Below are positions 2,496-28,431 of a DNA stretch of 39,041 bases, one piece after another. Under the pieces are notes generated by a model. The model ran no database searches, was not told the origin of the DNA, and saw only the letters and a list, made by a program, of their open reading frames with translations. How positions within the stretch are numbered: position 1 is the first letter of the stretch; the number at the start of each line of letters is the position of its first letter. The translations under genes and the position numbers were made by a program. Origin of the DNA: a virus; the IMG/VR virus record IMGVR_UViG_3300045988_101895; one strand, given 5' to 3'.

Positions 2496-3190
2496 GGGGT
2501 CTCCTCCTTTTTCTCGGCCCACTCCACGCCTGCGGCGCGTTGTGGGCTTCGTCCTGCGCTGGCGCTTCGCGCCGTGCTCGTCCTCGGTTCGCTGCGCTCA
2601 CCCTTTTTTTCGGCCCATTCCACGCCCGCACCGCTGACCGTCGCGGGTCTCCGTCTGTGGGATCTCCCTTTTGGGGGCTGTTCTCGGTCTTGGCGTTTCG
2701 CGCCCTCCGGCAGATATTGAGCCAGCGCCGCCCGGGCGAATGCCTCGGCCTGTTTCCGTTTCACGGCCTTCTGGATCTCCTCCGCCGCGATTTTCCCCAC
2801 GGCCAGCTTGTACACCCGGCAGGGCTCCGGGCAGGTGAGGCAGTCAGCCCCGCAGCTCAGCTCCAGCAGCTCGTGGATCTTGAGCCGCCGCAGCCGCTCC
2901 ATCCCGTACTCGCAGGGGCTCTCGCACTCGATACAGGCTCCGAGGTTCAGCGTCCACCGTTGGTTCGTCCGCCCGTTATCCGCCGTTTTCCGCCCGCGTA
3001 TGTCCACCGGGTAGTGGGCGTTGTAACAGAGCGACTTTTCCAGCGTCTTGACGCTTCGGATCTTTCGGGGGTCGCAGTAGGTGTTGTGCGCGTTGATCGA
3101 CCCCTCCGAAGCAAAGAGGTGAGTCCCGAGGTCAAAGCGGGTCGCCATCTGGCCCGGCACGGCATGGAGGAAGTCATGGCTCTTTATCAT
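2492..3190 (-). CDS. hypothetical Cys-rich protein (possible Zn/Fe-S site); the C-terminal tail is translated through hairpin repeats R3 and R2
   Basis: Track ORF 2492..3262. The start MIKSHDFLHAV at 3190 overlaps the upstream stop as ATGA. Cys motifs: ACIECESPCEYG...SCGADCLTCPEPC. The tail contains AGVEWAEKK twice. Confidence 0.55.
   Translation of the reverse strand: MIKSHDFLHAVPGQMATRFDLGTHLFASEGSINAHNTYCDPRKIRSVKTLEKSLCYNAHYPVDIRGRKTADNGRTNQRWTLNLGACIECESPCEYGMERLRRLKIHELLELSCGADCLTCPEPCRVYKLAVGKIAAEEIQKAVKRKQAEAFARAALAQYLPEGAKRQDREQPPKGRSHRRRPATVSGAGVEWAEKKGERSEPRTSTARSASAGRSPQRAAGVEWAEKKEETP
2518..2551 (-). repeat. hairpin repeat R2 (34 nt)
   Basis: cccactccacgcctgcggcgcgttgtgggcttcg. 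It lies just upstream of the RBS of the 88-aa gene and inside the 3' end of the Cys-rich ORF. Confidence 0.8.
2604..2651 (-). repeat. hairpin repeat R3 (expanded 48-nt variant)
   Basis: cccattccacgcccgcaccgctgaccgtcgcgggtctccgtctgtggg has the same CCCA(C/T)TCCACGCC start and GTGGG end as R1/R2, with an inserted inner stem CCCGC/GCGGG. Confidence 0.6.
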
Positions 3191-3432
3191 AGGAACCACC
3201 ACCGCAGGAAAGCATAGAAAAACATTCCCACCGCCGCCATGAACAGCAGCACGACCTCCCAAGTCTTATCCGGCGGGCACACCGGCGCGGCCATCCGGCG
3301 CAGGCGGCGCTTGTAGCGCAGCAGGTTGAGGCCCGTCCGGGGGATAATCTCGATGCCGTGATAGATAGCCGGGCCTGTCCACGCTCTCAGCGCGGCCCGC
3401 TGGCGGTACGACCTCATTCTCAGCTCCGTCAT
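3187..3432 (-). CDS. hypothetical small membrane protein (C-terminal TM)
   Basis: ATGA overlaps at both ends. The C-terminus WEVVLLFMAAVGMFFYAFLRWWFL is hydrophobic. Confidence 0.6.
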   Translation of the reverse strand: MTELRMRSYRQRAALRAWTGPAIYHGIEIIPRTGLNLLRYKRRLRRMAAPVCPPDKTWEVVLLFMAAVGMFFYAFLRWWFL

Positions 3433-6060: not shown

Positions 6061-7623
6061 ATGAAAGCTGTTATCTACGCCCGTTACTCCTCGGAGAAGC
6101 AGCAGGAGATCAGCATCGAGGGGCAGCTCCGGGTCTGTCAGGAGTTCGCGGCACGGGAGGGCTACGAGGTCGTGGACACGTACACCGACCGCGCCCTGTC
6201 CGCCAGCCGGGACGTGGAGCGCCGGGAGGATTTCCAGCGGATGATCCGGGACAGCAGCCGCCGGGGCTTTGACGTGGTCATCGTCTACAAGTTCAGCCGA
6301 TTCGCCCGGAATCGGTACGACAGTGCCGTCTACAAGGCCCGACTCCGGCAGAACGGCGTGAAGGTGGTCAGCGCGTGCGAGCCCATCAGCGCCAACCCGG
6401 AGGGCGCGCTGATCGAGGGCATTTTTGAGAGCCTCGACGAGTTCTATAGCAAGTCGTTGGCACAGGACGTGACGAGAGGAATGCACGAGAACGCCACCAA
6501 GGCCCTGTCCACCGGCGGCACCATCCCGCTTGGCTATGTGTCCGTTGATAAGCGGCTACAGATCGACCCGGCCACCGCGCCCGCCGTCCGGCTGGCCTTT
6601 GAGCGCTACGCCGATGGCATGAGCCTCGCCCGGATCGCGGACGAGCTGAACGCGCAGGGCTATCGCACCCGGGCCGGGAAGGCGTTCAACCGCTCGTCCT
6701 TTAACGCCCTGCTATCCAACAGGAAGTACATCGGCACCTATCATTATAATGGCGAGGTGGAGCTGGTGGGGCAAGTCCCGCCCATCGTCGACCCCGGCAC
6801 CTTCCGCCGTGTACAGGAGCGGCTCCGCAAAAACACGACGGCCCCCGGGCGCACCAAGGCCACGATCAATTACCTCCTGAGCACGAAGCTCTACTGTGGC
6901 GCGTGCGGCAAGCCCATGGCGGGGGAGAGCGGCCACAACCACTCCGGGACGCGGTACTACTACTACGCGTGCAGCGGGCGCAAGCGCCGCCTCGGGTGCA
7001 AGATGCCCACCCTCCGCAAGGACGACTTGGAGCGGCTGGTGGTGGAGCACGCCCGGGCGCTGTTAAGCCCGGGCAACATCAAGGCACTGGCCCACGCCGC
7101 CGCGGCTGAATATCAGCGTCAGGCCGAGGACGACAGCGCCGCCGTGTCCCTCCGCCGCCAGTTGGACGAGGTGACGCGCTCGCTGGACAACCTCCTGCGC
7201 ATGGTGGAGCAGGGCGCGGTCTCCGCCACGCTGGTGGGGCGCATCAACGAGCTGGAGGGGCGCAAAGCCAGCATCGCCGCCGAGCTGGCCGATGAGCAGC
7301 GCGGCGCGCCCGAGCTGACGGAGGTGGATATCCTGCGGTGGTTATCCTGTTTTGCGGATGGGTGTTTGGAGGATGAGGACTATATGCGGAATGTCATTGA
7401 TATGCTGGTGAATAAGATCGTGGTACAACAAAACCCGAACCAGAAGGTCTCTATCCTCGTGGCCTACAATCTGGCGGGCCGTGGGGATGAGATTTCTGGT
7501 TCGGGTTTGGTGGATGTGGTACACCAAGCCCGGCATAATCCGAACCTTTGCACCAGAGCAACGGAGTCTTGCATGACTTTCCTATTATATCATGGATGCG
7601 CGATATTTCAACTGGCGTCGTAA
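6061..7623 (+). CDS. int: large serine recombinase (phage integrase)
   Basis: MKAVIYARYSSEKQQEISIEGQ carries the catalytic Ser motif of the resolvase domain. It is followed by a recombinase domain, a zinc ribbon (CGACGKPM...YYYYACSGRKRRLGC) and a coiled coil. Length is 520 aa. Confidence 0.9.
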   Translation: MKAVIYARYSSEKQQEISIEGQLRVCQEFAAREGYEVVDTYTDRALSASRDVERREDFQRMIRDSSRRGFDVVIVYKFSRFARNRYDSAVYKARLRQNGVKVVSACEPISANPEGALIEGIFESLDEFYSKSLAQDVTRGMHENATKALSTGGTIPLGYVSVDKRLQIDPATAPAVRLAFERYADGMSLARIADELNAQGYRTRAGKAFNRSSFNALLSNRKYIGTYHYNGEVELVGQVPPIVDPGTFRRVQERLRKNTTAPGRTKATINYLLSTKLYCGACGKPMAGESGHNHSGTRYYYYACSGRKRRLGCKMPTLRKDDLERLVVEHARALLSPGNIKALAHAAAAEYQRQAEDDSAAVSLRRQLDEVTRSLDNLLRMVEQGAVSATLVGRINELEGRKASIAAELADEQRGAPELTEVDILRWLSCFADGCLEDEDYMRNVIDMLVNKIVVQQNPNQKVSILVAYNLAGRGDEISGSGLVDVVHQARHNPNLCTRATESCMTFLLYHGCAIFQLAS

Positions 7624-7651
7624 AAATTCCCCCTGCCGATGTGGCAGGGGG
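7621..7651. terminator. hairpin terminator between the convergent integrase and 7657..8322 genes
   Basis: CCCCCTGCC-GATGT-GGCAGGGGG. On the minus strand it is followed by AATTTTTA. Confidence 0.65.
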
Positions 7652-7656
7652 TCTTG

Positions 7657-8322
7657 CTATTTGCGGACGATATAGCGCAGATAGCGCTCGACCTTGTCCG
7701 GCTGTGCGTCCGAGTCTCGGATGAAGTCGGCGGCCATATCGGCGTAGAAATCCGGGCTGTGGATGCCGTAGCGCTTTGCCGTGGCGGCGTAATCGCTGTA
7801 CATGGCGTTGGCCACCGCGTAGAAGGCCCAGAACTCCGGGCCGTCGGTGGGAAAGCCCTCCTTTTGCGCCAGAGGTTTCAGCGCTTCGGGCGACCACTTG
7901 CCGCCGCGGGGATGGTTGGGATCCGTCCCCTCCATGCTCTGCACCCAGCGCATGGCCGACTCTTGGTCGATCTCGCCGGTTTCTTCCTCCGCCGCTGTGG
8001 GGGAGTCCATCCAGACCGTGCCGGTGGCCTTGATAGCCGTTGGCTTGTGATCGTCCGCGCGAATCATGCCGCCGTCGTAGTGGGCGGCTCCGAATCCGAG
8101 GCGGCCTCCGTCATAGAGACCCGCCCGTGGCGGCTCCGTGTAGTCCGGCTGATGCCGATAGGGATCCGCCGTCATGCGGCGCTCCATCGGGTAGCCGTAG
8201 GCCTCCGTGCGCCGCTCTTCCGGCCAGTCGCGTTCCCTCCGTCTGCGAGTCTCCTCCGGGCGGCGTTCCTCCTCTCCCTCCTCGCGGGGGCGGGTGAGCA
8301 TCCTCATGGTGATACCATTCAC
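7657..8322 (-). CDS. hypothetical protein (221 aa), last gene of the accessory cassette
   Basis: GTG start at 8322, preceded by AGGAGGTGGCACGAC, forming a GTGA overlap with the upstream stop. The N-terminus is R/E-rich and the C-terminus (GPEFWAFYAVANAMYSDYAATAKRYGIHSPDFYADMAADFIRD) looks globular. Confidence 0.55.
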   Translation of the reverse strand: MNGITMRMLTRPREEGEEERRPEETRRRRERDWPEERRTEAYGYPMERRMTADPYRHQPDYTEPPRAGLYDGGRLGFGAAHYDGGMIRADDHKPTAIKATGTVWMDSPTAAEEETGEIDQESAMRWVQSMEGTDPNHPRGGKWSPEALKPLAQKEGFPTDGPEFWAFYAVANAMYSDYAATAKRYGIHSPDFYADMAADFIRDSDAQPDKVERYLRYIVRK

Positions 8323-8726
8323 GTCGTGCCACCTCCTGCCTCAGTGGCGGGAGCCGTCCCGTTGATGGACTCAAGGGCGTTGTTCGGCGCGCAAGCCGGG
8401 CGGCCCAGCAAGCGGAACGTCCCGCCGGTGGCCGTGGTGACGACGACGGTAGAGTACTTGGTGCGCGTGCGGATGCCGCAGGCCGTTACCTGTGCGCAGT
8501 TGCACTTTGTCAGCGGGTACTGGGCCGTCCCCGTGCCGATGGTGACGACTACGGGCGCGTTGATGGTGGCGGTGTCCGGGATGGACTGAGCCACAACGAT
8601 ACAGTACTTCTGACCGTCTCTGTAGTTCCCCGCCGGGAGGTTGATGGTCAGCGTCCCGCCCGCGAAGGTGACCGCCTGAGAGATCACCAGCCGGTCACAG
8701 AGCCGACAAACAGTTTTACAGGCCAT
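8319..8726 (-). CDS. hypothetical Cys-containing beta-rich protein (135 aa)
   Basis: The start MACKTVCRLCDRLVISQAVTFAGGTLTINLPAG is chosen for its spacing from AAAGGAA. ATG 8735 is an alternative. The protein is T/V/A-rich. Confidence 0.5.
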   Translation of the reverse strand: MACKTVCRLCDRLVISQAVTFAGGTLTINLPAGNYRDGQKYCIVVAQSIPDTATINAPVVVTIGTGTAQYPLTKCNCAQVTACGIRTRTKYSTVVVTTATGGTFRLLGRPACAPNNALESINGTAPATEAGGGTT

Positions 8727-8745
8727 GATGTTCATTCCTTTCTCA

Positions 8746-8767
8746 GGGGCGGGATTACTCCCGCCCC
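8746..8767 (-). other. strong intercistronic hairpin GGGGCGGGA-GTAA-TCCCGCCCC
   Basis: A 9-bp GC stem between the 242-aa and 135-aa genes. No U-run follows, so it is more likely an attenuator or processing/stability element than a terminator. Confidence 0.5.
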
Positions 8768-8788
8768 GAATTGTCACCCTTACGGGGA

Positions 8789-9517
8789 TCAGCAGCAGCC
8801 GCAGCCGTTATAGCCCGAGTTACAGCCGCAGCCGGCCACGCGGTTGATGATCCGGTTGGTCTCCTGGCTCATCACGCCCGCCAGATAGTTGTTCTGGTTG
8901 GCCTGACTGGCCGCCAGCTTGAGAGACTGGTTCTCGTCCTGTAGGGTCGCCAGCTTGTCCTGCGTCAGGAAATCCAGCACGGCGCGGGTACCGGCGTTCT
9001 GCGCGTCGATGATATCCCGGGCCGCCGTCTGGACGGTGTTGCGGGTGTCGCACGCCTGCGTCGCCATGTTGTAGTTGATGTCCGCGAAGCCCCGCTCCAT
9101 CTGGCGCTGGGTCTCACAGCAGCACTGCTGATTGGCCGCGCCCATGGTGTAGAGCTGGTGCATGAGGGCCGCCTGCTGGTTGGAACGAGAAAGCTCCGCC
9201 TGAGCAAAGCCGTTGGCCATGCTTTGCTGAACACCGTTTACCAGCTGAGCCTGAGCATAGAGGCCGTCGCAGAGTCCGTTGTTGACTCCGTCGATCTTCC
9301 GTTCGATGTTTGCAAAGTCGCTGGTGAGGACGTAGCCGTCCATCGCCGAGCCCTGTCCGCCCCGGTTACCGCCGAAGCCGCCGTTACCCCAGCCAAACAG
9401 CAGGGCAAAGACCACGATGATCCAGAGCCAGTTTCCATCGCCGAACATCCCGTTGGAGTTGTTTCGGCCCTCGCTTACGCCTACCGCGTAGCCGCTGGAA
9501 AAATCATTATCCGCCAT
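8789..9517 (-). CDS. hypothetical membrane protein, Q/N-rich helical region, Cys-rich C-terminus
   Basis: RBS AAGGAGCGATAACACT. TM segment WLWIIVVFALLFGW is followed by GNGGFGGNRGG. It contains an internal CCC triplet and the C-terminus GCGCNSGYNGCGCC. Confidence 0.6.
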   Translation of the reverse strand: MADNDFSSGYAVGVSEGRNNSNGMFGDGNWLWIIVVFALLFGWGNGGFGGNRGGQGSAMDGYVLTSDFANIERKIDGVNNGLCDGLYAQAQLVNGVQQSMANGFAQAELSRSNQQAALMHQLYTMGAANQQCCCETQRQMERGFADINYNMATQACDTRNTVQTAARDIIDAQNAGTRAVLDFLTQDKLATLQDENQSLKLAASQANQNNYLAGVMSQETNRIINRVAGCGCNSGYNGCGCC

Positions 9518-9575
9518 AGTGTTATCGCTCCTTATCTTATATTCGCAGCGCGGGCCGCGCGCTCCCGCGGGTGCT

Positions 9576-9797
9576 TCATGATCTGATACCCAGACCCCGG
9601 AGGATCGCCTCCGGGCTCGTCCCCCGCTCCCGGGCCATGTTCTCCGCCATCCGGCGCAGCTGGTCGGGAGTCTTACCCTGTACCATTTTGAGGGCTTGGG
9701 CCATCATGGGGTCATTCCCGGCCAGCTGGCTGAGGATCTGGATGGGGTCGCCGCCGCCCTGTGCGGCCTGCAAAAGCATCATGATGGGGTTATTCAT
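9576..9797 (-). CDS. hypothetical small helical protein (73 aa)
   Basis: MNNPIMMLLQAAQGGGDPIQILSQLAGNDPMMAQALKMVQGKTPDQLRRMAENMARERG. Its start overlaps the upstream stop by 8 nt. Confidence 0.55.
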   Translation of the reverse strand: MNNPIMMLLQAAQGGGDPIQILSQLAGNDPMMAQALKMVQGKTPDQLRRMAENMARERGTSPEAILRGLGIRS

Positions 9798-10212
9798 CCG
9801 TCGCCGCCTCCTTCTGAGCGCGGCGGCGCGTCTTGAGCGCGTCGATCTGGCCCGTCAGCTCCGCCACCTGATCCCGCAGGGCCTTCACGTCGCTCTCCAG
9901 CGCGTAGGCCTCCGGGGCCTCTGTTTTGGGCTCTGGCCGGGCGACCCGCCGGTACTCCGCAAAATCGGTCTGGCCCGTCTGGCTGTTAAACAGCTTGGTG
10001 TAGATCGCGCCGTGGCTCACGTCCGGGAAGATCATCAATCCGCCCATGAAATCCACCGGCACGCCCAGCGCCTCCTCCCGGCTGGTGACCATGCGCCCGC
10101 TGAGGCCGCTCTGGGCCTGTTGGGCGGGCTGATAGGCGGGCTGTTGATACGCCGCCTGATACATGGGCGGCTGGTAGGTCTGTGGCATTTGGTAGGGTGG
10201 GAAATTCGCCAT
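9790..10212 (-). CDS. hypothetical protein with P/Q/Y-rich N-terminus and C-terminal coiled coil
   Basis: Track ORF 9790..10314. The start MANFPPYQMPQTYQPPMYQAAYQQPAYQPAQQ at 10212 follows GAAGGGAGCGTGAAAAC. Confidence 0.55.
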   Translation of the reverse strand: MANFPPYQMPQTYQPPMYQAAYQQPAYQPAQQAQSGLSGRMVTSREEALGVPVDFMGGLMIFPDVSHGAIYTKLFNSQTGQTDFAEYRRVARPEPKTEAPEAYALESDVKALRDQVAELTGQIDALKTRRRAQKEAATDE

Positions 10213-10277
10213 GTTTTCACGCTCCCTTCTGGGGATATCTTCCCACAGAAGGGGAGAGAGCGCCATGAAAGGAAGGG

Positions 10278-10308
10278 GCAAATTTCGGGCAAGCCCGCCG
10301 CAAATTTC
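10278..10308. promoter_or_regulatory. two 9-bp direct repeats GCAAATTTC flanking a small hairpin
   Basis: The repeats are at 10278-10286 and 10300-10308, 22 bp start to start, around GGGC-AA-GCCC. They lie upstream of the minus-strand cassette. Confidence 0.35.
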
Positions 10309-10332
10309 ATGCAACTTTTTTCAAAAAAAGTG

Positions 10333-10361
10333 TTGACATAATACGCAATGCGTATTATAAT
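10333..10361 (+). promoter_or_regulatory. perfect consensus promoter TTGACA-17 bp-TATAAT containing a 21-bp palindromic operator
   Basis: -35 at 10333-10338 and -10 at 10356-10361. The palindrome ATAATACGCA-A-TGCGTATTAT spans 10338-10358. The leader CACGTAATCAAGAG at 10365-10378 is identical to 3877..3864. Confidence 0.8.
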
Positions 10362-10422
10362 AAGCACGTAATCAAGAGGGGCCGCAGGCGGGGAAAGCCG
10401 CCGGGCATAGGAGATAGAGACC

Positions 10423-10695
10423 ATGGATAGCAAGATCACCACCAACATCAACCGCAACTACTACATCATCGGCGGACAGTATGAGACCTGCTGCTACGGA
10501 GCCAGCGATACCCTCCGCGGCGCTAAGTGCATCGCCACCCGCAACCGCGAATACTGGGATAACTGGCAGGGCTGGCACAAGCCCAACATCTACAAGGCGG
10601 ACGACGTGCAAGTCATCATCAGCCGCGGCCGCATCACCACGCCGGACGGCTGGGAAGTCATCGTACCCAAGCCCGACGCCGTGCCGGTCTGCTGA
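10423..10695 (+). CDS. hypothetical protein (90 aa)
   Basis: RBS GGAGATAGAGACC. Translation begins MDSKITTNINRNYYIIGGQYETCCYGASDTLRGAKCIATRNREYWDNWQGW. It is the first gene of the plus-strand block. Confidence 0.6.
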   Translation: MDSKITTNINRNYYIIGGQYETCCYGASDTLRGAKCIATRNREYWDNWQGWHKPNIYKADDVQVIISRGRITTPDGWEVIVPKPDAVPVC

Positions 10696-10834
10696 CCATA
10701 CCACAAGCCCCCGCCGGACGGGCCAAAGCCCGGCAAAAAAGGCGAAACGATCGCCGACAGCGTCACGGCCAATGGAAATGTCCGATATTATGTCGAAGAA
10801 TCCTACAATCAGCCGCCAAATCTGATGAACCATC

Positions 10835-10862
10835 TGGAAACACGGAAACTCCATGCTATAAT
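10835..10862 (+). promoter_or_regulatory. possible internal promoter with extended -10 (TGcTATAAT)
   Basis: TG at 10854-10855 and TATAAT at 10857-10862. The -35 (TGGAAA) is weak. Confidence 0.35.
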
Positions 10863-10887
10863 GTACTCACTGGAAGGGAGATATACT

Positions 10888-11061
10888 ATGAGCCCGAACG
10901 ATCTGATAAAAGCCGCGGTAGCCGTGGCACAGCAAAACGGCGCAACCGGCGAACAGGTTGCACAAGTGGAAATCGCCATCCAATATCTGACTAACCCGGA
11001 CTTCCGCGCAGCGTTAGAGGATTATGTCTTCCACGCAACTTATCAACCCAAAACCATCTAA
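10888..11061 (+). CDS. hypothetical small protein (57 aa)
   Basis: Track ORF 10825..11061. The start MSPNDLIKAAVAVAQ follows GGAAGGGAGATATACT. Confidence 0.5.
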   Translation: MSPNDLIKAAVAVAQQNGATGEQVAQVEIAIQYLTNPDFRAALEDYVFHATYQPKTI

Positions 11062-11087
11062 CACACAGCAAAAAGGAGGAAGTAAAA

Positions 11088-11357
11088 ATGACTTACAATC
11101 ATTACCCGCAGAATCTCTGGACTCCCGATGATGTTAAAGATATGGTCAACGATTGGCTGCTGGAGAATAATGACGAGATAACCGATCTCGTCATTGATGG
11201 CGAGCCGTATTACGAGCCTGACAGCTGGCAGCCGGACGGGGATCCGCATTGCGAGCATGGATGCTGGCAGCAGGACGACCATGATGACAAGTGTCGTTAC
11301 ACGCTTGTTGCCGACGCTGATGGCAACATTCAAATATATTACGGTGCTACATTGTGA
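11088..11357 (+). CDS. hypothetical strongly acidic protein (89 aa)
   Basis: RBS AAAAGGAGGAAGTAAAA. The protein is D/E-rich (DDVKDMVNDWLLENNDEITDLVIDGEPYYEPDSWQPDGDPHCEHGCWQQDDHDD). This stretch is visibly AT-richer than its flanks. Confidence 0.6.
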   Translation: MTYNHYPQNLWTPDDVKDMVNDWLLENNDEITDLVIDGEPYYEPDSWQPDGDPHCEHGCWQQDDHDDKCRYTLVADADGNIQIYYGATL

Positions 11358-11400
11358 TGAGGTTCCGCCCCGAAGGTCACGAGGGCAGAAGGAGGACACG

Positions 11401-11649
11401 ATGGGAACCAACGCGACAAAAGAAACACTGACCCGGGAGGCATGGGAAGCACTTACCGCCGGGGAGCGTCGAAGTGTGCTGAAGGTCGAGCAGGCCAAGG
11501 AATACAGCGGCCTGCGTGCCTATCCCACCACCTGCCGCCGGGTGATGGAGCGTATCCCGGAGGACTGGTGGGGCAGGTACACCGCCGAGCACATCGGCCA
11601 GGTCATGCGGCTGCTTCATCAGGCCTATTCCGACGGCAAAAACGATTAA
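11401..11649 (+). CDS. hypothetical protein (82 aa)
   Basis: The start MGTNATKETLTREAWEALTAGERRSVLK follows GAAGGAGGACACG. Confidence 0.6.
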   Translation: MGTNATKETLTREAWEALTAGERRSVLKVEQAKEYSGLRAYPTTCRRVMERIPEDWWGRYTAEHIGQVMRLLHQAYSDGKND

Positions 11650-11662
11650 GGAGGACTGACCC

Positions 11663-12010
11663 ATGACTTTCCAAGACTTCCACCGGCTCTACATCGACGC
11701 GAGCGAGTGCGACACCGCCGAACTCTTCATGGCGGAGTGCGGCGGCTCCGTCGACTTCGCCAGCCCGGAGGACGCAGTGCGCATCCTGACGGCCATTCAC
11801 GCCATCGTTCACGGCGGCGGCGACTTTCGCGCCATCGCGGGTGCCTGCGGCCTGTCTATTCGCGGTCTTGCGCTGCGTCTTAACATCCCGGAGCGGACGG
11901 CCACCTGCTGGACGGCTAACTCTGACAGCAACCACCGCACGGCCTCCCCTTGGGCGCTGCAGCTGATCGCCTACGCCGCCGTCAACTCCATGGAGGCTGA
12001 CGATGTCTAA
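11663..12010 (+). CDS. hypothetical protein (115 aa), possible HTH
   Basis: RBS TAAGGAGGACTGACCC. Contains IAGACGLSIRGLALRLNIPERTA. It ends with the GATGTCTAA stop-start overlap. Confidence 0.6.
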   Translation: MTFQDFHRLYIDASECDTAELFMAECGGSVDFASPEDAVRILTAIHAIVHGGGDFRAIAGACGLSIRGLALRLNIPERTATCWTANSDSNHRTASPWALQLIAYAAVNSMEADDV

Positions 12011-13025
12011 GCGCCGCTATAAGTGCTGGGTGCTTCGCTCTCCCACCGGCGACCTGTACAGGACGGATTCCATCAGCGACTTTGTCAAGGCTCACCCGGA
12101 CGAGTTTCCCAACGCCCCGTTCGCCATACATCAGTTCTATTCCTGCGGAGTTTACGGCTGGGATGTGGTCTCCCGCCAGACGGAGGACGGGGAGCTTGTT
12201 CTGCCGCCCCACCACCAAAACCGCACCTTCTGGACGCTTCTCTCCCCCTCCGGGGAGGTCTACGGCGCGGCCAATCTTACCCAGTTTCTTTTAGACCACC
12301 CGGAGGATTTCCCAAATCCGTCCGCCGCCTCCTGCGCCTTTACACAGGCCTCCGGCACGACCCGCACCGTCTGCGGCTGGTCAGTGCTCCCCAATCCTGT
12401 CTCCTCCGCCCAAATCACCACGTGGCGCAAATGGCGCTGTTACAAGCTCCTGACCTGCAGCGACTGCGGCAGGGAATACACCGGGCATATCAAGACCATC
12501 CGCTGCCCTGAGTGTCAGGCAGAAGCCGACCGCAGGCATAACGCGGAGTATCGTCAGCGCAAGCTGGCCGGGCAGGCGCGGGAGATCGGCAGCACGGCGA
12601 TCTGCGAGCGGTGCGGGGCGGCGTATACCGTGGAATCGGGCCTGCAGCGCTATTGTAAGGCCTGCGCCCCCGCCGCCATCAAGGAGCAGCGCAACCAAAG
12701 CTCCCGCGAGTGGAATCAGGCCGCCTATGCCGACCAGGGGAAGCGGGACGGCAAGAACGAGGCCCGCCGGGTCGTTCCTCTGCCGCATACCTGCACCGTC
12801 TGCGGCAAGACGTTTTACTCGACCGGCGAACCTCTCTACTGCTCCGAGGATTGCCGCCAGAAGGCCCGGAAGGAATATCAGACCCGCTACGATCAGGAGC
12901 GGCGGGATAAGCGCCGGGAGGACGCAAAGGCCCGCTACGCCAAACTTACGCCGGAGGAAAAGGAACAGCGCAACGCAAAGGCCCGCGAGCGCTACGCCAA
13001 ACGAAAGGAGACGCACGATGTCTAA
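12003..13025 (+). CDS. multi-zinc-ribbon protein, paralog 1 (340 aa): two N-terminal W-L-SP-G-Y modules, three CxxC pairs, basic repeat tail
   Basis: MSKRRYKCWVLRSPTGDLYRTDSISDFVKAHPDEFPN and FWTLLSPSGEVYGAANLTQFLLDHPEDFPN form an internal duplication. The CxxC pairs are CSDCG..CPEC, CERCG..CKAC and CTVCG..CSEDC. The tail reads RYAKLTPEEKEQRNAKARERYAKRKE. Confidence 0.7.
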   Translation: MSKRRYKCWVLRSPTGDLYRTDSISDFVKAHPDEFPNAPFAIHQFYSCGVYGWDVVSRQTEDGELVLPPHHQNRTFWTLLSPSGEVYGAANLTQFLLDHPEDFPNPSAASCAFTQASGTTRTVCGWSVLPNPVSSAQITTWRKWRCYKLLTCSDCGREYTGHIKTIRCPECQAEADRRHNAEYRQRKLAGQAREIGSTAICERCGAAYTVESGLQRYCKACAPAAIKEQRNQSSREWNQAAYADQGKRDGKNEARRVVPLPHTCTVCGKTFYSTGEPLYCSEDCRQKARKEYQTRYDQERRDKRREDAKARYAKLTPEEKEQRNAKARERYAKRKETHDV

Positions 13026-14058
13026 TCGCCGCTACAAGTACTGGGTGCTTCGCTCGCCTTCCGGCGATCTCTACAGGACATACTCCCTCAGCGACTTTGT
13101 TAAGGCGCACCCGGAGGAATTCCCCAACGCAAAAGTCGCCGTCCATGGGCTCTACATTGGAAGCGCGGCAAGCGGCTGGATAGTCGTGTACCGGCAAACC
13201 ATGGACGGAGAGATGATCGCTTCGCCGCCCAAGAAAAATCGCAATTTCTGGACGCTTCGTTCCCCCTCCGGGGAAGTCTACGGGGTCTCCAATCTCAGGC
13301 AGTTCCTCCGCGATCATCCAGAGGATTTCCCAAACATCGACACCGCCGCCAGCGCCTTTACTCAGGTCACTGGCACCGCCCGCACCGTCCGTGGCTGGTC
13401 AGTTCTCCCCGACTCGGAGACCTCTGCTAAAGTCTCCACATGGAGCCCAGTTCCCTTTTGCCGCGACTGCGGCCGCGAACTTACCGGGCACATTAGGGTG
13501 ACCCGCTGCCCGGAGTGCCAGAAGGAGGCCAACCGCAGGAATAACGTGGAATACCGCCAGCGCAAGAGAGACGGGAAAGTTCGGGAGATCGGCAGCACGG
13601 ACATCTGCGAGGCGTGCGGCGGAAAATACACCGTGGAATCCGGCTCGCAACGCTACTGTAAGGCGTGCGCCACCGCCGTTGTCCGGGAGAACTGCAGCAA
13701 AAAGTCCCGTGAGCAGAAAATGGCCGTCCTGAACGAGCGCAGCCGGGCCGTCCCCCTTCCGCATACCTGCACCGTCTGTGGCAAGGAATTTTACGCCATC
13801 GGCAAGCCGCTATACTGTTCCGAGGGCTGTCGCCAGAAGGGCAAGAAGCAATACAAGATCCAGTATGATCTGTCGCGGAAGGAAAAGCACCGGGAGTACG
13901 ACAAAAAGCGCTACGCCCAGCGCACCCCGGAGCAAAAAGAACAGCGCAACGCAAAGGCCCGCGAGCGTTGGGCGAATCGCACCCCGGAGCAGATAGAAAA
14001 ACGCAAGGTTCAGGCTCATGAGCGCTACTTGAGGAAAAAAAATAACGCCGGGGAATAA
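13018..14058 (+). CDS. multi-zinc-ribbon protein, paralog 2 (346 aa)
   Basis: Collinear with paralog 1 (MSNRRYKYWVLRSPSGDLYRTYSLSDFVKAHPEEFPN...). It has the same ATGTCTAA junction with the preceding gene. Confidence 0.7.
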   Translation: MSNRRYKYWVLRSPSGDLYRTYSLSDFVKAHPEEFPNAKVAVHGLYIGSAASGWIVVYRQTMDGEMIASPPKKNRNFWTLRSPSGEVYGVSNLRQFLRDHPEDFPNIDTAASAFTQVTGTARTVRGWSVLPDSETSAKVSTWSPVPFCRDCGRELTGHIRVTRCPECQKEANRRNNVEYRQRKRDGKVREIGSTDICEACGGKYTVESGSQRYCKACATAVVRENCSKKSREQKMAVLNERSRAVPLPHTCTVCGKEFYAIGKPLYCSEGCRQKGKKQYKIQYDLSRKEKHREYDKKRYAQRTPEQKEQRNAKARERWANRTPEQIEKRKVQAHERYLRKKNNAGE

Positions 14059-14076
14059 TCCCCGGCGTTGGTTTTT
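14044..14076. terminator. bidirectional rho-independent terminator
   Basis: AACGCCGGGGA-ATAA-TCCCCGGCGTT forms an 11-bp stem. The A-run at 14034-14042 precedes it and TTTTT (14072-14076) follows. The stop codon of paralog 2 lies in the loop. Confidence 0.8.
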
Positions 14077-14269
14077 ACAGGTGGCGTTCTACTGTTCCCC
14101 GCCACCTGTTGACGATGTTCTGCACGGTTCTAGGGCTGATTCCGAGCTCGTCGGCGATCTGCTCGTAGCAGATGCCGTCGAGGTATTTACGTTTCAGCGC
14201 CCTGCGGTCGCGCTCTGAGCGCACCCACAGATCAATGACCCTCTCGTAATCCTGCCGCCCGTGCTCCAT
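14075..14269 (-). CDS. small sigma-70 region-4-like HTH protein (64 aa)
   Basis: RRALKRKYLDGICYEQIADELGISPRTVQNIVNRW resembles the region-4 HTH. It is the last gene of the leftward late operon. Confidence 0.55.
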   Translation of the reverse strand: MEHGRQDYERVIDLWVRSERDRRALKRKYLDGICYEQIADELGISPRTVQNIVNRWRGTVERHL

Positions 14270-14272
14270 GGG

Positions 14273-14725
14273 TTAGCCCTCCGCGGCCTCGGCAGGATCG
14301 GCAGCGGAGGCTTCCTCAGGCGGTTTCGTCTTCTCCCCGGAGGCGAGCTGCTTCAAATCGAGCTGTTTCCACGCGGCTTTCAGCGCGTCCAAGACGACCT
14401 CCGATTCGATGTTAAATCCCATATCTTTCATTCTGTTTAAAGCATATGCCCATTTGTCTTCCCCGAGATACCGGCCCAGCATGGCTTCCGCGGCTTCCAC
14501 GGCGATCTTCGCCGCGTCGATCATATCCCGCTTCTCCAGCCACGGGCGCACGTAGCGCATCCATACCCGCGCCAGCAGGGCGGACATAGCCGCCGCCAGC
14601 GCGCCGATGATCGAGACGACCACCTGCGTCCAATCCACCTGTTTTAGGATGCTTTCCTCCGCCAGCGCCCAGACGGGCGTGAGCAGGAGCACCAGTGCCA
14701 GCAACCATACCATGATCTTCCTCAT
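14273..14725 (-). CDS. holin, LL-H-like family
   Basis: N-terminal TM segments (VWLLALVLLLTPVWALA and VVVSIIGALAAAMSALLARVW) are followed by AAKIAVEAAEAMLGRYLGEDKWAYALNRMKDMGFNI, typical of LL-H holins. It sits in the lysis cassette. Confidence 0.6.
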   Translation of the reverse strand: MRKIMVWLLALVLLLTPVWALAEESILKQVDWTQVVVSIIGALAAAMSALLARVWMRYVRPWLEKRDMIDAAKIAVEAAEAMLGRYLGEDKWAYALNRMKDMGFNIESEVVLDALKAAWKQLDLKQLASGEKTKPPEEASAADPAEAAEG

Positions 14726-18889: not shown

Positions 18890-19025
18890 TTCGGCTCGCC
18901 TCCGTTATGGTTTTCAGCAACTCCCGCAATGTCTGGATGCTGGCCAGCAGGTAGTTGAGACTGTTTTCCCCGTGGGTGTCCACCTTGTTCAGCGCTTGGA
19001 TGACGTTCTCAATGATCTCTTTCAT
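18870..19025 (-). CDS. small hypothetical protein (51 aa)
   Basis: MKEIIENVIQALNKVDTHGENSLNYLLASIQTLRELLKTITEASRNENQDE. The ATG overlaps the upstream TGA by 1 nt. Confidence 0.45.
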   Translation of the reverse strand: MKEIIENVIQALNKVDTHGENSLNYLLASIQTLRELLKTITEASRNENQDE

Positions 19026-20872
19026 CAGTCGTCTATGGCCCTCCCTAAATACACAACTTCCTTGGATGACACGCTCCCGTTGGAGTTCTTTTTGGGGGTG
19101 AGGACGGTCATGTGGGCATTGCTCCCGTTCTGGTCTTTGTAGTAGATCGTTCCTTCCACGTAGCGTGGGAACGAAACGCCTGTTACAAAGGTCTTGGTTT
19201 TCCATCCGCAGTCGTAGTTGATAAGCGACACGTTGGTCGCCTGAAAGGTCTGTGTGGTCAGATTGTTGATGTCCATCCGCTTGGCTTGAGCCGTCCCCGC
19301 GAAAAACTTGTTGATGTTGGCCACTTCCGCGCTCAGATCGCTGGCCGTCACGTATCCCTTGAGGTTGACTTTGTTGGCGCTGATGGTGATGCTTTCGCTG
19401 GTCTGGTTGATGGAAGAGATCACGCCGTTTTTGGATACCTTCAGCTGGATCTCGGCGGCCTGACCGTCTATGCGGATGTTGGCGGACGATATCGCCTCGC
19501 CGTTGGCTTCCACCTTGGCCACAAGGCCGATGGTGGTATCCGAGCCGTTGAGCAGGATCTCCGTGCTGCTCAGACGCTCCCCTTGGCTGGCTAGGAGCTT
19601 TTCATTGGCCGTGATCCGCACCGTGGCCTTTTCCAGCTTGATTTCCGTCTCGCTGATCTTGTTGGCCTGCTCGTTTATGGCGATGGTGTGGAGGCGGATC
19701 AAGTCCATGTTCTCCACGATCAGCTCCTTATTCTTCTCAGCGCTGTTCCCGGCCCGGCCAGCGCCGCCCCGGGCCTTGGCAAGGTCGCTCTTGATGCTGG
19801 CGATCTGTTTTGTCAGGCTCTTTTTCCACTCGTCCTTCTCCGCGCCCAGCTTGATCTTGGTCTCCTCCGGGCGCACGTAGTCGCGCTCGATGTCCACCAC
19901 TTGGCTGGTAAATGTCTCCCCCTGTCTGGTGATGACCGCCACCAGATCGTAGAGCCGGATCTTACGGTGGCTCTGGCCGGGCAGCATCTCCATATCTTGA
20001 ACAGTGGCCGTCCCGCCGATGATGGGTTCCCGCTGGGCTTCCAGCGCCTCCCACGTCTTTTCCAGCAGTTCGCCCGCGTCTGTGATCTGTTGGTCGCTGA
20101 AGACCATTTCTTTCCGCCCGTACTTGGCCAGCGCGGCCTCGTCGGCGATCCACGTCTGGCCGGACGGTTTGTCCGCCGGGTCTCCGCCCGCCTTGCTCCA
20201 CGTCACGCCCGCAATGGTCAGCCGGGACGGGTCGTTTCCTTCGCCGGTGGCCTTACCCACGCCGTAGGCCACCGTGCAGGGGCTCCCCGTCCGGGTCAGA
20301 TACACGCTCCCCGCGTCGGTGGCGCTGTCGAAGATACGGCCCCGGAAGATGGGCTCCATCTCCTGTAGGTCAATGCAGCGGGCCGTGATGGCTCCGCCGC
20401 TGAAATCGTAATAGGGCACGACCCGCACCGCGCACGCCGTCGCCATGTCCCGCAACGCTTCCCACGCCGTCTGGTAATACACCGTCAGTGTGGCTTTCCG
20501 CTTCCCGGCAGCGGTGGCCCGGATCTCCCACGCCGTCCCCGCCAGCAGCGCCGCCGCACCGTCCGCCGGGGCGCTGTCCGTCAGCTCCACGTGTTCGATC
20601 ACCTTTTCCGTCAGTTCCGCCGCCGCCGCGTCCGTGGCGGTGATCCGCGTCACGGCCAGCAGGTCGTCCTCCTCCGTCTCGTCCACCTCAAAGAGGCGGA
20701 AACGCCCGTCCACACACCTAAAGCCGAGAAATTCCCCCGGGCGCACGCCTGCGCCCATGGTGACCTCGGCCTCCAGCTCATAGTCTTCCTCCTTGTGGAC
20801 GAGCTCACTCACGCCTCCGGGCAGCACTTTCCGCACCCTCCGCGCCGCGTCGAAGATATACACTACATCCAT
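19025..20872 (-). CDS. tail-associated (Tal-like) minor structural protein with C-terminal coiled coil
   Basis: Track ORF 19025..21145. The start MDVVYIFDAARRVRKVLPGG at 20872 is typical of the prophage-tail N-terminal region. It lies directly after Dit. Confidence 0.7.
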   Translation of the reverse strand: MDVVYIFDAARRVRKVLPGGVSELVHKEEDYELEAEVTMGAGVRPGEFLGFRCVDGRFRLFEVDETEEDDLLAVTRITATDAAAAELTEKVIEHVELTDSAPADGAAALLAGTAWEIRATAAGKRKATLTVYYQTAWEALRDMATACAVRVVPYYDFSGGAITARCIDLQEMEPIFRGRIFDSATDAGSVYLTRTGSPCTVAYGVGKATGEGNDPSRLTIAGVTWSKAGGDPADKPSGQTWIADEAALAKYGRKEMVFSDQQITDAGELLEKTWEALEAQREPIIGGTATVQDMEMLPGQSHRKIRLYDLVAVITRQGETFTSQVVDIERDYVRPEETKIKLGAEKDEWKKSLTKQIASIKSDLAKARGGAGRAGNSAEKNKELIVENMDLIRLHTIAINEQANKISETEIKLEKATVRITANEKLLASQGERLSSTEILLNGSDTTIGLVAKVEANGEAISSANIRIDGQAAEIQLKVSKNGVISSINQTSESITISANKVNLKGYVTASDLSAEVANINKFFAGTAQAKRMDINNLTTQTFQATNVSLINYDCGWKTKTFVTGVSFPRYVEGTIYYKDQNGSNAHMTVLTPKKNSNGSVSSKEVVYLGRAIDD

Positions 20873-21591
20873 TCGTTCCGCCAACTCGCTTCCATTTGGC
20901 CGCCGTCCGTGCTGGTGATCTTGTGTACCCCCGGCGTAAAGCCGGGCCGCCACAGACTGGCCGTATAGTCGATCAGGCTCTCCGCGTGGGATCCGTTTAC
21001 GGTCAGGCTCCCGCCCTTGGTGTCCATCTCCACAACCGCCTCCGCCGTGAGCGTCCCCACCAGCGTCAGAAAGGCTTTCCCGTCCAGTTTCCACACCAGC
21101 CCGTCGCTTTTCGCCGCGAGGGTCTGGCGGATAGTGGGGCGGCATACCCCGTCCCCGCTGACGGCCATTTCCGCGCCTCCCGTCCCGCTGGCCCGGCTGA
21201 TATAGGTGTCATGGGCATAGGGGCGGGGGAGGATGAACGTCACGTCCACCGTGGCAAAGCCGAAGGTAAACTCCGGCGCGGAGATACTTCCCAGCACCGC
21301 CTCGTAGGCTTTCCCCGGCCAGTGGGTCGGCTCCAGCTCTCCCACGCCGTCCCCGGAACTGGCAGCCCATCGGGCCAGCCGCGACCGGGCCTCCCACGCG
21401 TCGTCCCGCGTCCGACAGGCAATATTGATCCGCGCCACATACTCCCCTTGTTCCGTCCGCACCGCCGCGAAGGTCTCGCCGTCCCATCCTTGGACGGTCT
21501 CCACCGTCCGCTCCGGGCAGCCCGGCGGGATCTCCTTACTGATACTGATCCGCGGGTGGATGTCCCGCACGTCCACGCCGTTAAACCTCAT
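20863..21591 (-). CDS. distal tail protein (Dit)
   Basis: MRFNGVDVRDIHPRISISKEIPPG... It sits immediately after the tape measure gene. RBS GGAGGGAGCGAG. Confidence 0.7.
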   Translation of the reverse strand: MRFNGVDVRDIHPRISISKEIPPGCPERTVETVQGWDGETFAAVRTEQGEYVARINIACRTRDDAWEARSRLARWAASSGDGVGELEPTHWPGKAYEAVLGSISAPEFTFGFATVDVTFILPRPYAHDTYISRASGTGGAEMAVSGDGVCRPTIRQTLAAKSDGLVWKLDGKAFLTLVGTLTAEAVVEMDTKGGSLTVNGSHAESLIDYTASLWRPGFTPGVHKITSTDGGQMEASWRNEWM

Positions 21592-24138: not shown

Positions 24139-24729
24139 TTAAGCCCCCGCCACGTTGGCCTTGGTGTCCAGCCACGCAATCGCCTTGGACTCCTCCGTAA
24201 AGTCTGCGTAGTCCCGGAACTTGTTTTTGCCGGTGGAATCGTTGACCACGGCCATGATGTTGCCGTTGAGGGTAGGAGTCTGCCACGTGATGCTCCCCGC
24301 CTTGGTGTTGGCCGTCTCGTTGGCCATGGAAAGCTGGGTCTTGTGATACCAGTACGCCCGATAGCTCTCAACGCTGTTGAGCCGCCGCACCCGGTAGTAG
24401 CCAAGGCCCACATAGGGCGCAGCCTCGCCCGTCTCATGGAAGACCGTCGGAGTTTGGCTTTCTCCTGCAGTCTTTTTGACCCCTAGGATTTTTTCCGCCG
24501 CGTCGTCGCTGATATCGTCAATGTTGAGGTCAATGGTTCCGCCCGTGATGCTGTTGTCGCTCTCCTTGAGCGCGTCGTTAGCATACAGGCCCTCGGTGTT
24601 GCGGTTGATGGTCACCGTCGCACTGATCGCCGCGCCGATCTCCACGCCCGCGTCATAGGTCACAGCCTGACCGGCCACTTCCGTTTTGATCGGGGCGGCT
24701 ACAACGTGCTTCATGCCCACAAATGCCAT
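24139..24729 (-). CDS. major tail protein
   Basis: 196 aa, beta-rich, immediately upstream of the chaperones. Confidence 0.75.
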   Translation of the reverse strand: MAFVGMKHVVAAPIKTEVAGQAVTYDAGVEIGAAISATVTINRNTEGLYANDALKESDNSITGGTIDLNIDDISDDAAEKILGVKKTAGESQTPTVFHETGEAAPYVGLGYYRVRRLNSVESYRAYWYHKTQLSMANETANTKAGSITWQTPTLNGNIMAVVNDSTGKNKFRDYADFTEESKAIAWLDTKANVAGA

Positions 24730-26162: not shown

Positions 26163-26447
26163 TTAGCTCTTAGTGACCGTCACCTTGTAGGTTCGCACGG
26201 TCGTACCGTAGGTCACCTTGATCGTCAGCACGTTAGCGCCGGTCGCCCACGTGGCAGAGCCTCCGTTGGTCACCGCCGTAGCGCCGTTTTTGATCTCGAT
26301 CTTCGCGCCAGCTTTTGCCGCCGTGGCGGTCACTTTGGCGGACGCTCCTGTGGTGGTGCTGGTGTATTCCAGCGTCTCCGGGTTAAATTTTGGAGACAGG
26401 CTCAGCGACCCTACTTCCAGCTTTTGCAGGGCCGCATTTAAGGGTTT
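26163..26447 (-). CDS. Ig-like (cadherin-like beta-sandwich) C-terminal extension of the capsid protein, reachable only by a -1 frameshift
   Basis: The -1 frame is open from 26474 to the stop at 26163. Translation is LNAALQKLEVGSLSLSPKFNPETLEYTSTTTGASAKVTATAAKAGAKIEIKNGATAVTNGGSATWATGANVLTIKVTYGTTVRTYKVTVTKS. No ATG lies upstream of the domain, and the only GTG would truncate it. Confidence 0.55.
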   Translation of the reverse strand, partial: KPLNAALQKLEVGSLSLSPKFNPETLEYTSTTTGASAKVTATAAKAGAKIEIKNGATAVTNGGSATWATGANVLTIKVTYGTTVRTYKVTVTKS

Positions 26448-27862: not shown

Positions 27863-28431
27863 TCTTTTTTCAGCCTCGCTTTCATCCGCTCTTTCCAGAG
27901 CTCGATCTGCCTTTTTTGGATTTCCTGATATTCCGCCGCCCGGGCGGAAATGGCGGTCTCCTTGTACGCCGGGAACGTTACGCAGGACACCTCGTAGAGC
28001 TTTACGCGCTCGATTGTCCAATGGACGGCCCCAGTTCCCGGATCCACGTCCGTCCGCTCTTGGAGGATGTCGAAACCGAAGGAGCATTGGCTCACGTCGC
28101 CCCGTTGTACCCGCGCATACAGGTTCATTGCGTCGCTGTCCTGCTCGTTGATCTCGATGCTGCCCCACAGGCCGTGCTCGTCCACTCGCAGCGTCATAGT
28201 GCCAGCCGTCGTGCGGCCCAGCACCAGACGCGTCTCGTGGTCAATCAGTGCTCGGATATCTCCGTCCAGCGTCCCGTCAAAGGCGTGGCGGTCGATGCTT
28301 TCCGTCGCCCCGTCAAAGATCTCGTAGTTGCTGTCGAACACGGCAAAGTAACCCTCGATTTTCTTTTTGCCGTTTTCCTCCCGCGTTTCAAAGCGAGTCG
28401 CGCCGCCACGGGTCTGTCGTTCACTCCTCAT
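27853..28431 (-). CDS. prohead maturation protease (HK97 family)
   Basis: Start [10 protein letters not shown] follows GGGAGGAGGTGAGAGCG. Contains IEGYFAVFDS...IDHETRLVLGRT...YEVSCVTFPAY. Confidence 0.8.
   Translation of the reverse strand: MRSERQTRGGATRFETREENGKKKIEGYFAVFDSNYEIFDGATESIDRHAFDGTLDGDIRALIDHETRLVLGRTTAGTMTLRVDEHGLWGSIEINEQDSDAMNLYARVQRGDVSQCSFGFDILQERTDVDPGTGAVHWTIERVKLYEVSCVTFPAYKETAISARAAEYQEIQKRQIELWKERMKARLKKEWH

Follow-up and report, generated by a model that had tools for sequence, protein, structure and literature searches.

A five-gene cassette in a siphophage genome is part of a portable, separately controlled accessory module of tailed phages of gut Firmicutes

The five minus-strand genes at positions 7657–10212 of the IMG/VR virus record IMGVR_UViG_3300045988_101895 (39,041 nt; 'the window' refers to this whole stretch) were shown to be the structural part of a portable, selectively maintained and separately controlled accessory module of the tailed phages of gut Firmicutes. 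A preliminary description made from the letters alone had listed them as a cassette of low-complexity, membrane and Cys-rich proteins. The five open reading frames (ORFs) were found where it had placed them, and all of the sequence features that it reported were confirmed. The genes, designated g1 to g5, are as follows.

9790–10212, minus strand: g1, 140 aa; residues 1–34 are 65 % P/Q/Y, with a heptad pattern at residues 101–136
9576–9797, minus strand: g2, 73 aa; Met/Gln-rich, helical
8789–9517, minus strand: g3, 242 aa; hydrophobic helix at approximately residues 30–43, GNGGFGGNRGG, CCC at residues 132–134 and the tail GCGCNSGYNGCGCC
8319–8726, minus strand: g4 (form a), 135 aa; starts MACKTVCRLCDRL, contains 8 Cys and is beta-rich
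7657–8322, minus strand: g5 (form a), 221 aa; residues 1–60 are 45 % R+E

All five are real genes and are under purifying selection. Their codon positions are normal (GC1>GC2), with a third-position GC content (GC3) of 0.79–0.82, and comparison with three relatives gave ratios of non-synonymous to synonymous substitution (dN/dS) of 0.07–0.25 for g1–g5, with the integrase gene in the same range. The overlaps that had been said to link the genes are present between g1 and g2 (8 nt) and between g4 and g5 (4 nt, GTGA), but spacers of 58 and 62 nt separate g2 from g3 and g3 from g4, respectively. The g2–g3 spacer folded no better than shuffled sequence (z=0.58) and a second hairpin there was rejected on this basis. 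A scan of positions 7400–10700 against Rfam gave no match.

Conservation of the cassette as a unit across prophages, a check that the preliminary description had proposed, was examined in approximately 160 loci fetched from IMG/VR, GTDB genomes, GenBank phages and PLSDB. The order g1-g2-g3-g4-g5 was constant in all of them, at locus GC contents spanning 33–64 %. The genes are therefore not private cargo of this prophage but one copy of a syntenic module with its own candidate regulator. Using iterative hidden Markov models (HMMs) built here, g1 was found in 152 and g3 in 154 of 156 loci; g2 was detected in 82, and its slot always holds an ORF of 57–110 aa. An exhaustive HMM search placed the g3 family at 2,075 clusters at 50 % identity, all of them stand-alone proteins of 100–340 aa, and a separate search gave at least 7,976 clusters at 90 % identity. 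For g4, 4,839 relatives were found. Conservation within the module is highest in this protein, which is 63–75 % identical in loci where g3 is only approximately 40 % identical. The 40 relatives of g5 each have DUF7841 as their sole domain. According to the genome records, the hosts are mainly Oscillospiraceae, Lachnospiraceae and Ruminococcus, with some metagenome-assembled genomes (MAGs) of the class Bacilli; the few Bacteroidales and Collinsella bins that contain the module consist of phage-sized contigs and are probably mis-binned.

The fourth and fifth genes each come in two forms. Of the 149 loci (among the 156) with a g4, 34 carry form g4a, the type in the window, and 115 carry form g4b. 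Profile–profile comparison found no homology between g4a and g4b (probability 0.3 %), nor between g5a (the DUF7841 form) and g5b, and mixed combinations of the alternative forms occur. For this reason the invariant core is best described as g1-g2-g3 followed by a small Cys-containing beta-rich protein and a charged-disordered/helical protein. Two further genes are optional: one for a papain-like protein of approximately 125 aa (phrog_3754) directly before g1 in 51 loci, and one for a small HExxH protein (M78/SprT-like) 3′ of g5b in approximately 65 loci. The full order is g0 (described below), terminator, promoter-like region, papain-like gene where present, g1-g2-g3, hairpin, g4-g5 and HExxH gene where present, and this unit co-occurs with differing sets of head genes.

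The elements that set the module apart from its surroundings in the window are listed here.

14075–14269, minus strand: g0, a 64-aa helix-turn-helix (HTH) protein that is sigma-70 region-4-like, directly 3′ of the holin gene (14273–14725)
14035–14069, minus strand: intrinsic terminator after g0, with an 11-bp GC stem and U8; it also ends the convergent plus-strand ORF
10423–14058, plus strand: 3.6-kb block of several small ORFs, not part of the module
10213–10422, both strands: divergent control region between g1 and the plus-strand block
8746–8767, minus strand: g3–g4 hairpin with a 9-bp stem, GGGGCGGGA-GUAA-UCCCGCCCC, without a U-run, directly before the g4 ribosome-binding site (RBS)
7629–7651, both strands: bidirectional terminator-like hairpin, a 10-bp GC inverted repeat between g5 and the convergent integrase gene

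The cassette does lie, as first described, between the plus-strand block (10423–14058) and the serine integrase gene (6061–7623). Its five genes are not the complete set, however, as a sixth, g0, has been split off by the plus-strand insertion. An HMM of g0 built from other loci matched the window ORF at 14075–14269 with E=1.2e-19, and the g0 member in one locus (L035) matched Pfam Sigma70_r4 at 6.7e-5. In 101 loci g0 is no more than 2.5 kb upstream of g1, and in other lineages it is 0.1–0.5 kb from the first module gene. It accompanies the module in three settings, namely after the lysis genes (the window, loci L083–L085 and Butyrivibrio virus Ceridwen), inside the head genes (Dulem virus 35) and beside the integrase gene (Dulem virus 39). 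g0 is thus the usual upstream partner of the module and its candidate regulator.

As g0 adjoins the module in those other lineages, the block between g0 and g1 in the window was interpreted as an insertion into the control region of the module, and the segment 10333–14058 appears to be mobile. It carries two paralogous genes for Zn-ribbon/HNH-like proteins of approximately 340 aa (12003–13025 and approximately 13022–14058) with repeated CxxC motifs and weak PHROG HNH matches. HNH-like genes are found inside or beside the module elsewhere (listed at L157 7425–8288, L159 4169–4720 and L056 8283–9302), at g4/g5 in Ceridwen, between g2 and g3 in Dulem virus 33 and 3′ of g5b in L056. This repeated insertion of HNH/Zn-ribbon genes in unrelated phages resembles the behaviour of homing endonucleases that target conserved genes. 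In a group of phages of approximately 58 kb (L056, L057 and L065, at approximately 2900–3360), a g0-like HTH is fused to a Tn916-Xis domain (Pfam, 1.2e-26) and the fusion gene lies upstream of the integrase gene, which precedes the module. This arrangement hints that regulators of the g0 type may be linked to the control of excision.

The g0 terminator has a folding energy (dG) of −23.5 kcal/mol (z −6.0), and none of 200 shuffled sequences folded as well. A g0 stop codon followed by a GC hairpin and a T-run was found in 48 of 62 non-redundant lineages. Directly 3′ of the terminator many lineages carry a promoter-like box, TTTTT-(A/G)TGC(G/A)A(A/T)AAT-(A/T)T, which ends in a TATAAT-like hexamer 15–25 nt before the RBS of the first module gene; its −35 position falls within the terminator hairpin and no −35 element was recognisable. 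In the window, the minus strand has a T7 run (10323–10329) and then GAAATTTGC twice (10300–10308 and 10278–10286) upstream of g1, and these are the only two copies of that sequence in the window. Related lineages have a T-run and RTGCRAWAATWT at the matching site, and others have two to four phased direct repeats in place of the box. The box is single-copy in the complete genome of Dulem virus 35, and in 15 of the 16 loci with a match it directly precedes the module, on the same strand. As it occurs once per genome, and there, it is specific to the module; its interpretation as a general late promoter of the phage was rejected on the same ground. On the plus strand of the window a perfect sigma-70 promoter (TTGACA-17-TATAAT, 10333–10361), which overlaps the palindrome ATAATACGCAtTGCGTATTAT, drives the inserted block.

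The 9-bp GC hairpin at 8746–8767, which had been picked out previously, is present and is not peculiar to the window. A stable hairpin was found just 3′ of the g3 stop codon in 74–90 % of 124 non-redundant lineages, with unrelated sequences and in some cases a U-run, and the mean best dG after g3 was −18.5 kcal/mol compared with −13.4 kcal/mol for the coding control. This conservation of position and the excess over the control indicate that the hairpin is a conserved feature and did not arise by chance. It is likely to be an attenuator or a stabiliser of the mRNA 3′ end, in which case g1–g3 would be more abundant than g4–g5. Terminators on both sides and a promoter of its own, the criterion by which a moron is recognised, were found here at the level of sequence only, and on this evidence the module is predicted to be an autonomous unit.

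The five proteins and approximately 140 diverse relatives were scanned against Pfam, NCBIfam, PHROGs and PADLOC. g5 matched DUF7841 (PF25223) over positions 13–112 of the 114 in the profile (E=6e-16) and, at 59.1 bits, exceeded the cut-off of 25.2; nine of 11 g5a relatives matched the family as well. g5 consists of an R/E-rich disordered N-terminus and the C-terminal DUF7841 domain. g3 matched PHROG 16490, a family without a function, over residues 15–229 (E=9.5e-38), and g1 matched PHROG 21718 at 2.2e-5, with other members of its family at 1e-29 to 1e-32. g4b was also matched among the PHROGs, and all of the PHROGs matched by the module families (16490, 21718, 20016, 36614, 28802 and 3754) are, like DUF7841, catalogued without function. 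There was no Pfam match for g1–g5 other than DUF7841 in g5 and none in NCBIfam, no family of any kind was matched by g2, and PADLOC-DB 2.0 gave no match for g1–g5, g4b, g5b, g6, the papain-like protein or g0. The statement that no family could be assigned holds for functional families, as the libraries searched contain no functional annotation for any part of the module, but g5 is clearly a DUF7841 protein and g3 is clearly a member of phrog_16490. A literature search for DUF7841, which did not extend to the module as a unit, returned nothing, and no relevant work on BclA-like prophage genes was found.

Searches of the PDB with profiles of g1, g3, g4a and g4b gave only chance-level matches, and no XepA or YomS chain was found with any of the four at E≤10. 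Against BclA_C (PF18573), three of 23 g4b members matched over nearly the full length (best E=7.9e-8, approximately 30 bits) but below the 38-bit cut-off, and the window g4a and 11 diverse g4a relatives had no match at E≤0.01. For Ena/DUF3992, there was no Pfam match and the g4a profile found no PDB sequence at E≤10. AlphaFold2 models were of low confidence both for g4 (37-sequence alignment, pLDDT 45) and for g3 (69 sequences, pLDDT 44.5), the latter showing three long helices.

From the alignments, g1 is made up of a P/Q/Y-rich N-terminus, a conserved globular core of approximately 55 aa with the motif VTSREEA..VDF..G..FPD....IYTK, and a C-terminal amphipathic/coiled-coil helix. g3 has an uncharged or acidic N-tail, a transmembrane (TM) helix, a Gly/Trp-rich juxtamembrane segment, a helical domain of approximately 170 aa with the CCC triplet and a Cys-rich C-tail; its many invariant residues include CCC, the conserved PxPxPAYxVxNP motif and the terminal Cys cluster. 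A stretch of 14 residues (APYPVPAYQVANPL) that every close relative has, and that forms part of this family-wide motif, is missing from the window g3, the result of an in-frame deletion of 42 nt in the region 8789–8860. With its single hydrophobic helix, g3 is predicted to be a single-pass membrane protein, and it is the hallmark of the module. The helix lies between Gly/Asn/Trp-rich segments and, because Lys and Arg are nearly absent from both sides of it, its sequence does not fix the topology. No holin family in Pfam or PHROGs was matched by g3, and the phage already has a holin gene (14273–14725). The N-terminus of g3 has neither a basic n-region nor a leader of the pilin type, and its interpretation as a type IV pilin or a signal peptide was dropped for this reason. 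A RiPP, bacteriocin or metallothionein reading of its Cys/Gly tail was likewise dropped, as modification enzymes are lacking and g3 is a 240-aa membrane protein. g4a has Cys residues that are invariant among its relatives. No signal peptide, export signal or lipobox was visible in the sequences of g1, g2, g4 and g5.

The identifiable genes upstream of the module in 46 lineages are mainly those for holins (10 matches to six Pfam holin families) and proteins with endolysin domains (approximately 20, including Amidase_2, Amidase_3, NlpC/P60, PG_binding_1, SH3_3, M23, CHAP and NAGPA), and in 13 loci an XhlA-like gene is just upstream. An integrase gene lies within a few kb in 52 of 159 loci, convergent and downstream in 27 and co-directional and upstream in 25. 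In the window, L083–L085, Dulem virus 33 and a Vescimonas prophage the module is between the lysis genes and attP/int, and in L083 and Vescimonas fastidiosa MM35 it is the last block before the host genes. Comparison of the integrated L083 with the free L084 and L085 placed attP between the end of the module and the 3′ end of int (approximately 12010–12060). The corresponding interval in the window, 7623–7657, contains the inverted repeat at 7629–7651, and attP is expected there. The L083 prophage abuts the smpB region. The V. fastidiosa MM35 prophage (L163, NZ_AP023416.1, approximately 249.7–254.5 kb) has a holin gene, an amidase gene and g1–g5 followed by the host genes ldh, miaB and mutL, and RefSeq lists all of its module genes as hypothetical. 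Other locations were also seen. In Dulem virus 35 and bajarodcaudo virus 2 the module and g0 lie between the portal/minor capsid and scaffold/major capsid genes, and in Dulem virus 36 the module is directly 3′ of the gene for the receptor-binding protein. The only cultured phage carrier found in literature searches is Ceridwen, which has g0, the papain-like gene, g1, a g2-like gene, g3 and g4b. Ceridwen has no integrase or excisionase and only a lytic cycle has been observed (PMC7372960).

We tentatively favour the view that this is a g0-controlled accessory module of the lytic cycle, the products of which would build a membrane-anchored assembly on g3 and act late on the host envelope. g0 would be transcribed last in a lytic-cycle operon, after the holin gene in the case of the window, and the terminator behind it would block read-through, leaving transcription of the module to a promoter of its own that has no recognisable −35 element and probably depends on g0. 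g3 would then enter the cytoplasmic membrane as an abundant anchor, to which the translationally coupled g1, with its Tyr/Pro/Gln-rich tail, and g2, both without a signal peptide, would bind. Both g4, presumably a beta-sandwich protein, and g5, with its Arg/Glu-rich tail and helical DUF7841 domain, would be made in lower amounts after the hairpin and complete the assembly, which the Cys clusters of g3 and g4 may hold together. Such an assembly would be neither part of the virion nor a surface factor of the lysogen; its target would be the host envelope or membrane as infection ends, with a role in egress, support of lysis or exclusion.

We infer that g0 stands at the end of a presumed lytic-cycle operon in every arrangement. 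Late or very late, g0-dependent expression is the simplest model because g0 ends these operons, a terminator follows it and the promoter beyond has no −35 element and is unique in the genome. Support for the favoured reading comes from the gene order kept in every fetched locus over the whole range of GC content and the selection acting on all five genes, from the travelling of g0 with the module in its three settings, and from the terminator and single module-specific box that follow g0. The holins and endolysin domains that predominate among the upstream neighbours, the independence of the module from virion type and its presence in Ceridwen, a phage seen in the lytic cycle only (PMC7372960), also argue for it. 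So do the single hydrophobic helix of g3 beside four proteins without a signal peptide, the positional conservation of the post-g3 hairpin, which bears on stoichiometry, and the high GC content (62–67 %) that the module shares with the tail-fibre, lysis and integrase segment of the window.

Several points weigh against this reading. The timing, the dependence on g0, the topology of g3 and the formation of a complex are all matters that we infer, and the AlphaFold2 models are unusable as fold-level support. The layout of terminator, promoter and terminator fits that of a classic moron, and the proximity of an integrase gene in approximately one-third of the loci would suit lysogenic conversion equally well. 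The link to lysis genes, which may only mark the end of the late operon, is absent from the head-gene and integrase-side arrangements. The occurrence of g4 and g5 in two forms each, without detectable homology between them, makes one fixed complex less likely. A more specific possibility, which we consider somewhat unlikely, is that tailed phages of gut Clostridia have a hitherto unrecognised class of very late module in which g0, as a dedicated region-4-like activator, would induce a protein coat or condensate that nucleates at the membrane and assembles by itself. The tails of g1 (Tyr-rich) and g5 (Arg-rich) would then serve as multivalent stickers, g3 as the membrane anchor and the Cys-rich g4 as the cap or cross-link. 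If true, this would be a new phage-built cell structure for egress, protection of progeny or exclusion of competitors, and one without a homologue among known lysis, exclusion and virion systems.

Lysogenic-conversion cargo, as proposed in the preliminary description, is possible though doubtful. A moron cassette of this kind would have a promoter active in the prophage and would alter the lysogen envelope, for example by superinfection exclusion or altered aggregation. The position at the prophage end between the lysis region and attP/int in the window, L083–L085, Dulem virus 33 and Vescimonas agrees with this, as do the integrase genes within a few kb in 52 of 159 loci, the terminators on both sides, the promoter-like box with its good −10 element, the inclusion of a membrane protein and a genome position that shifts as that of morons does. 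The order of several genes is conserved over thousands of phages, however, unlike the patchy distribution of typical morons, and the module is a conserved phage module that is also found in head-gene clusters and in Ceridwen, which has no integrase and is known from its lytic cycle only (PMC7372960). Moreover, g0 lies in presumed lytic-cycle operons, the module promoter has no −35 element and an export signal is missing from four of the five proteins. A role in the virion, for example in head decoration, in fibres or in ejection with a membrane-inserting component, is an unlikely alternative even though two lineages place the module between the portal/minor capsid and scaffold/major capsid genes and one after the receptor-binding protein gene. 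The very strong conservation of g4 would suit a self-assembling structural protein, g4b resembles the trimeric C-terminal (C1q/TNF-like) domain of BclA that is found on fibres, and a hairpin 3′ of an abundant gene is typical of major structural genes. Set against these are the independence of the module from the type of head and tail genes, its own regulator and insulation from the structural operon, the long disordered and low-complexity regions together with a membrane anchor, the absence of a match to any structural PHROG family and the lack of the module in most related siphophages.

It was judged very unlikely that the module is a new anti-phage defence or abortive-infection system carried by prophages, in which g3 would be the effector in the membrane. 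Prophage ends are known hot spots for defence systems, and a membrane protein with optional peptidases (papain-like and HExxH) could belong to one, but no component matched PADLOC, there is no nuclease, NTPase or sensor domain, the contexts are exclusively phage and include a lytic phage, and stoichiometry control and low-complexity proteins look structural. The least credible reading, which we regard as highly improbable, is that of spore-surface or exosporium-like proteins that alter the spores of the lysogen. The Cys-, Tyr- and Gln-rich composition, which had suggested envelope or spore-surface proteins, and the spore-forming habit of many host clades are in keeping with it, and the impression has a small basis because of the sub-threshold matches of g4b to BclA_C. 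The window g4a, however, gave no BclA_C or DUF3992 signal and shows no homology to g4b, and neither collagen repeats nor a sporulation-sigma promoter were recognised. The module is also present in a phage of Butyrivibrio fibrisolvens, which is not known to sporulate.

Comparison with known systems shows which features are new. An autonomous accessory cassette in a phage genome is a known kind of element, and it is the protein content, the regulator with its box and the breadth of distribution that are new. Morons of temperate phages are autonomous promoter–gene–terminator units such as lambda bor/lom and HK97 gp15. Like them, the module is bounded by terminators and preceded by a promoter-like element of its own, often lies near a prophage end or in a late operon, is mobile in position and includes a membrane protein. 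It differs in its dedicated regulator, in its six to eight genes whose order is fixed, in the 30–45 % identity kept across host families and in its occurrence in a phage seen in the lytic cycle only. Spanins of Gram-negative phages include an i-spanin with an N-terminal TM helix, a coiled-coil domain and linking cysteines. g3 is similar in its N-terminal TM helix, long helical domain, conserved Cys and frequent location 3′ of the holin and endolysin genes, but its greater size, its Gly/Trp-rich juxtamembrane segment and its Cys-rich tail set it apart. Phages with the module infect monoderm Firmicutes, no two genes form an embedded or overlapping pair as in spanins, and none of g1, g2, g4 and g5 has the signal peptide or lipobox that the lipoprotein partner in a two-component spanin should have. 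The lytic cassettes of Bacillus prophages, in which XhlA, XepA and YomS accompany the holin and endolysin (PMC6834076), are comparable in that extra genes beside the holin and endolysin genes encode small beta-sandwich and membrane-associated proteins. Profile searches against PDB sequences gave no similarity to XepA or YomS, and the module differs further in having a regulator and a promoter of its own and in lying away from the lysis genes in some phages. The C-terminal domain of BclA (PF18573) is the C1q/TNF-like trimeric head of Bacillus exosporium fibres; the match of g4b to it is near full length but sub-cut-off, the module proteins lack collagen repeats, and the window g4a has no match and no detectable relationship to g4b.

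Among the unannotated gene sets of human and animal gut phages, the module is one of the more widespread. Its recognition replaces six to eight scattered 'hypothetical proteins' per genome with one testable system, in which a regulator of its own and a unique promoter box are combined with built-in control of stoichiometry and with fourth and fifth genes that can be exchanged. Two cultured carriers, Ceridwen (B. fibrisolvens DSM 3071) and the V. fastidiosa MM35 prophage, make experiments feasible. If a role in egress or exclusion is true, it would be a new step in the lytic cycle of phages of monoderm anaerobes, and the predicted g0/box pair could provide a portable expression switch for Clostridia.

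The remainder of the window, which appears to be a complete siphophage genome of approximately 39 kb, contains the following genes. Tail-fibre-like genes are also present on the minus strand and repressor-like genes on the plus strand.

29598–31376, minus strand: large terminase
28421–29623, minus strand: portal
26438–28168, minus strand: major head protein
24139–24729, minus strand: major tail protein
21604–23601, minus strand: tape measure
19025–21145, minus strand: Tal
14273–14725, minus strand: holin
6061–7623, plus strand: large serine integrase

The GC content of the window is mosaic. The high-GC tail-fibre, lysis, module and integrase segments are at 6–10 kb and 15–22 kb, and the head, packaging and replication segments (22–34 kb) have 53–61 %. 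This suggests recombination between phages whose hosts differ in GC content. The ORF of the major head protein is unusually long (576 aa), with a PHROG match over residues 99–563, and is overlapped by a 234-aa ORF at 27853–28557; it may include a fused or extended N-terminal (protease or scaffold) region.

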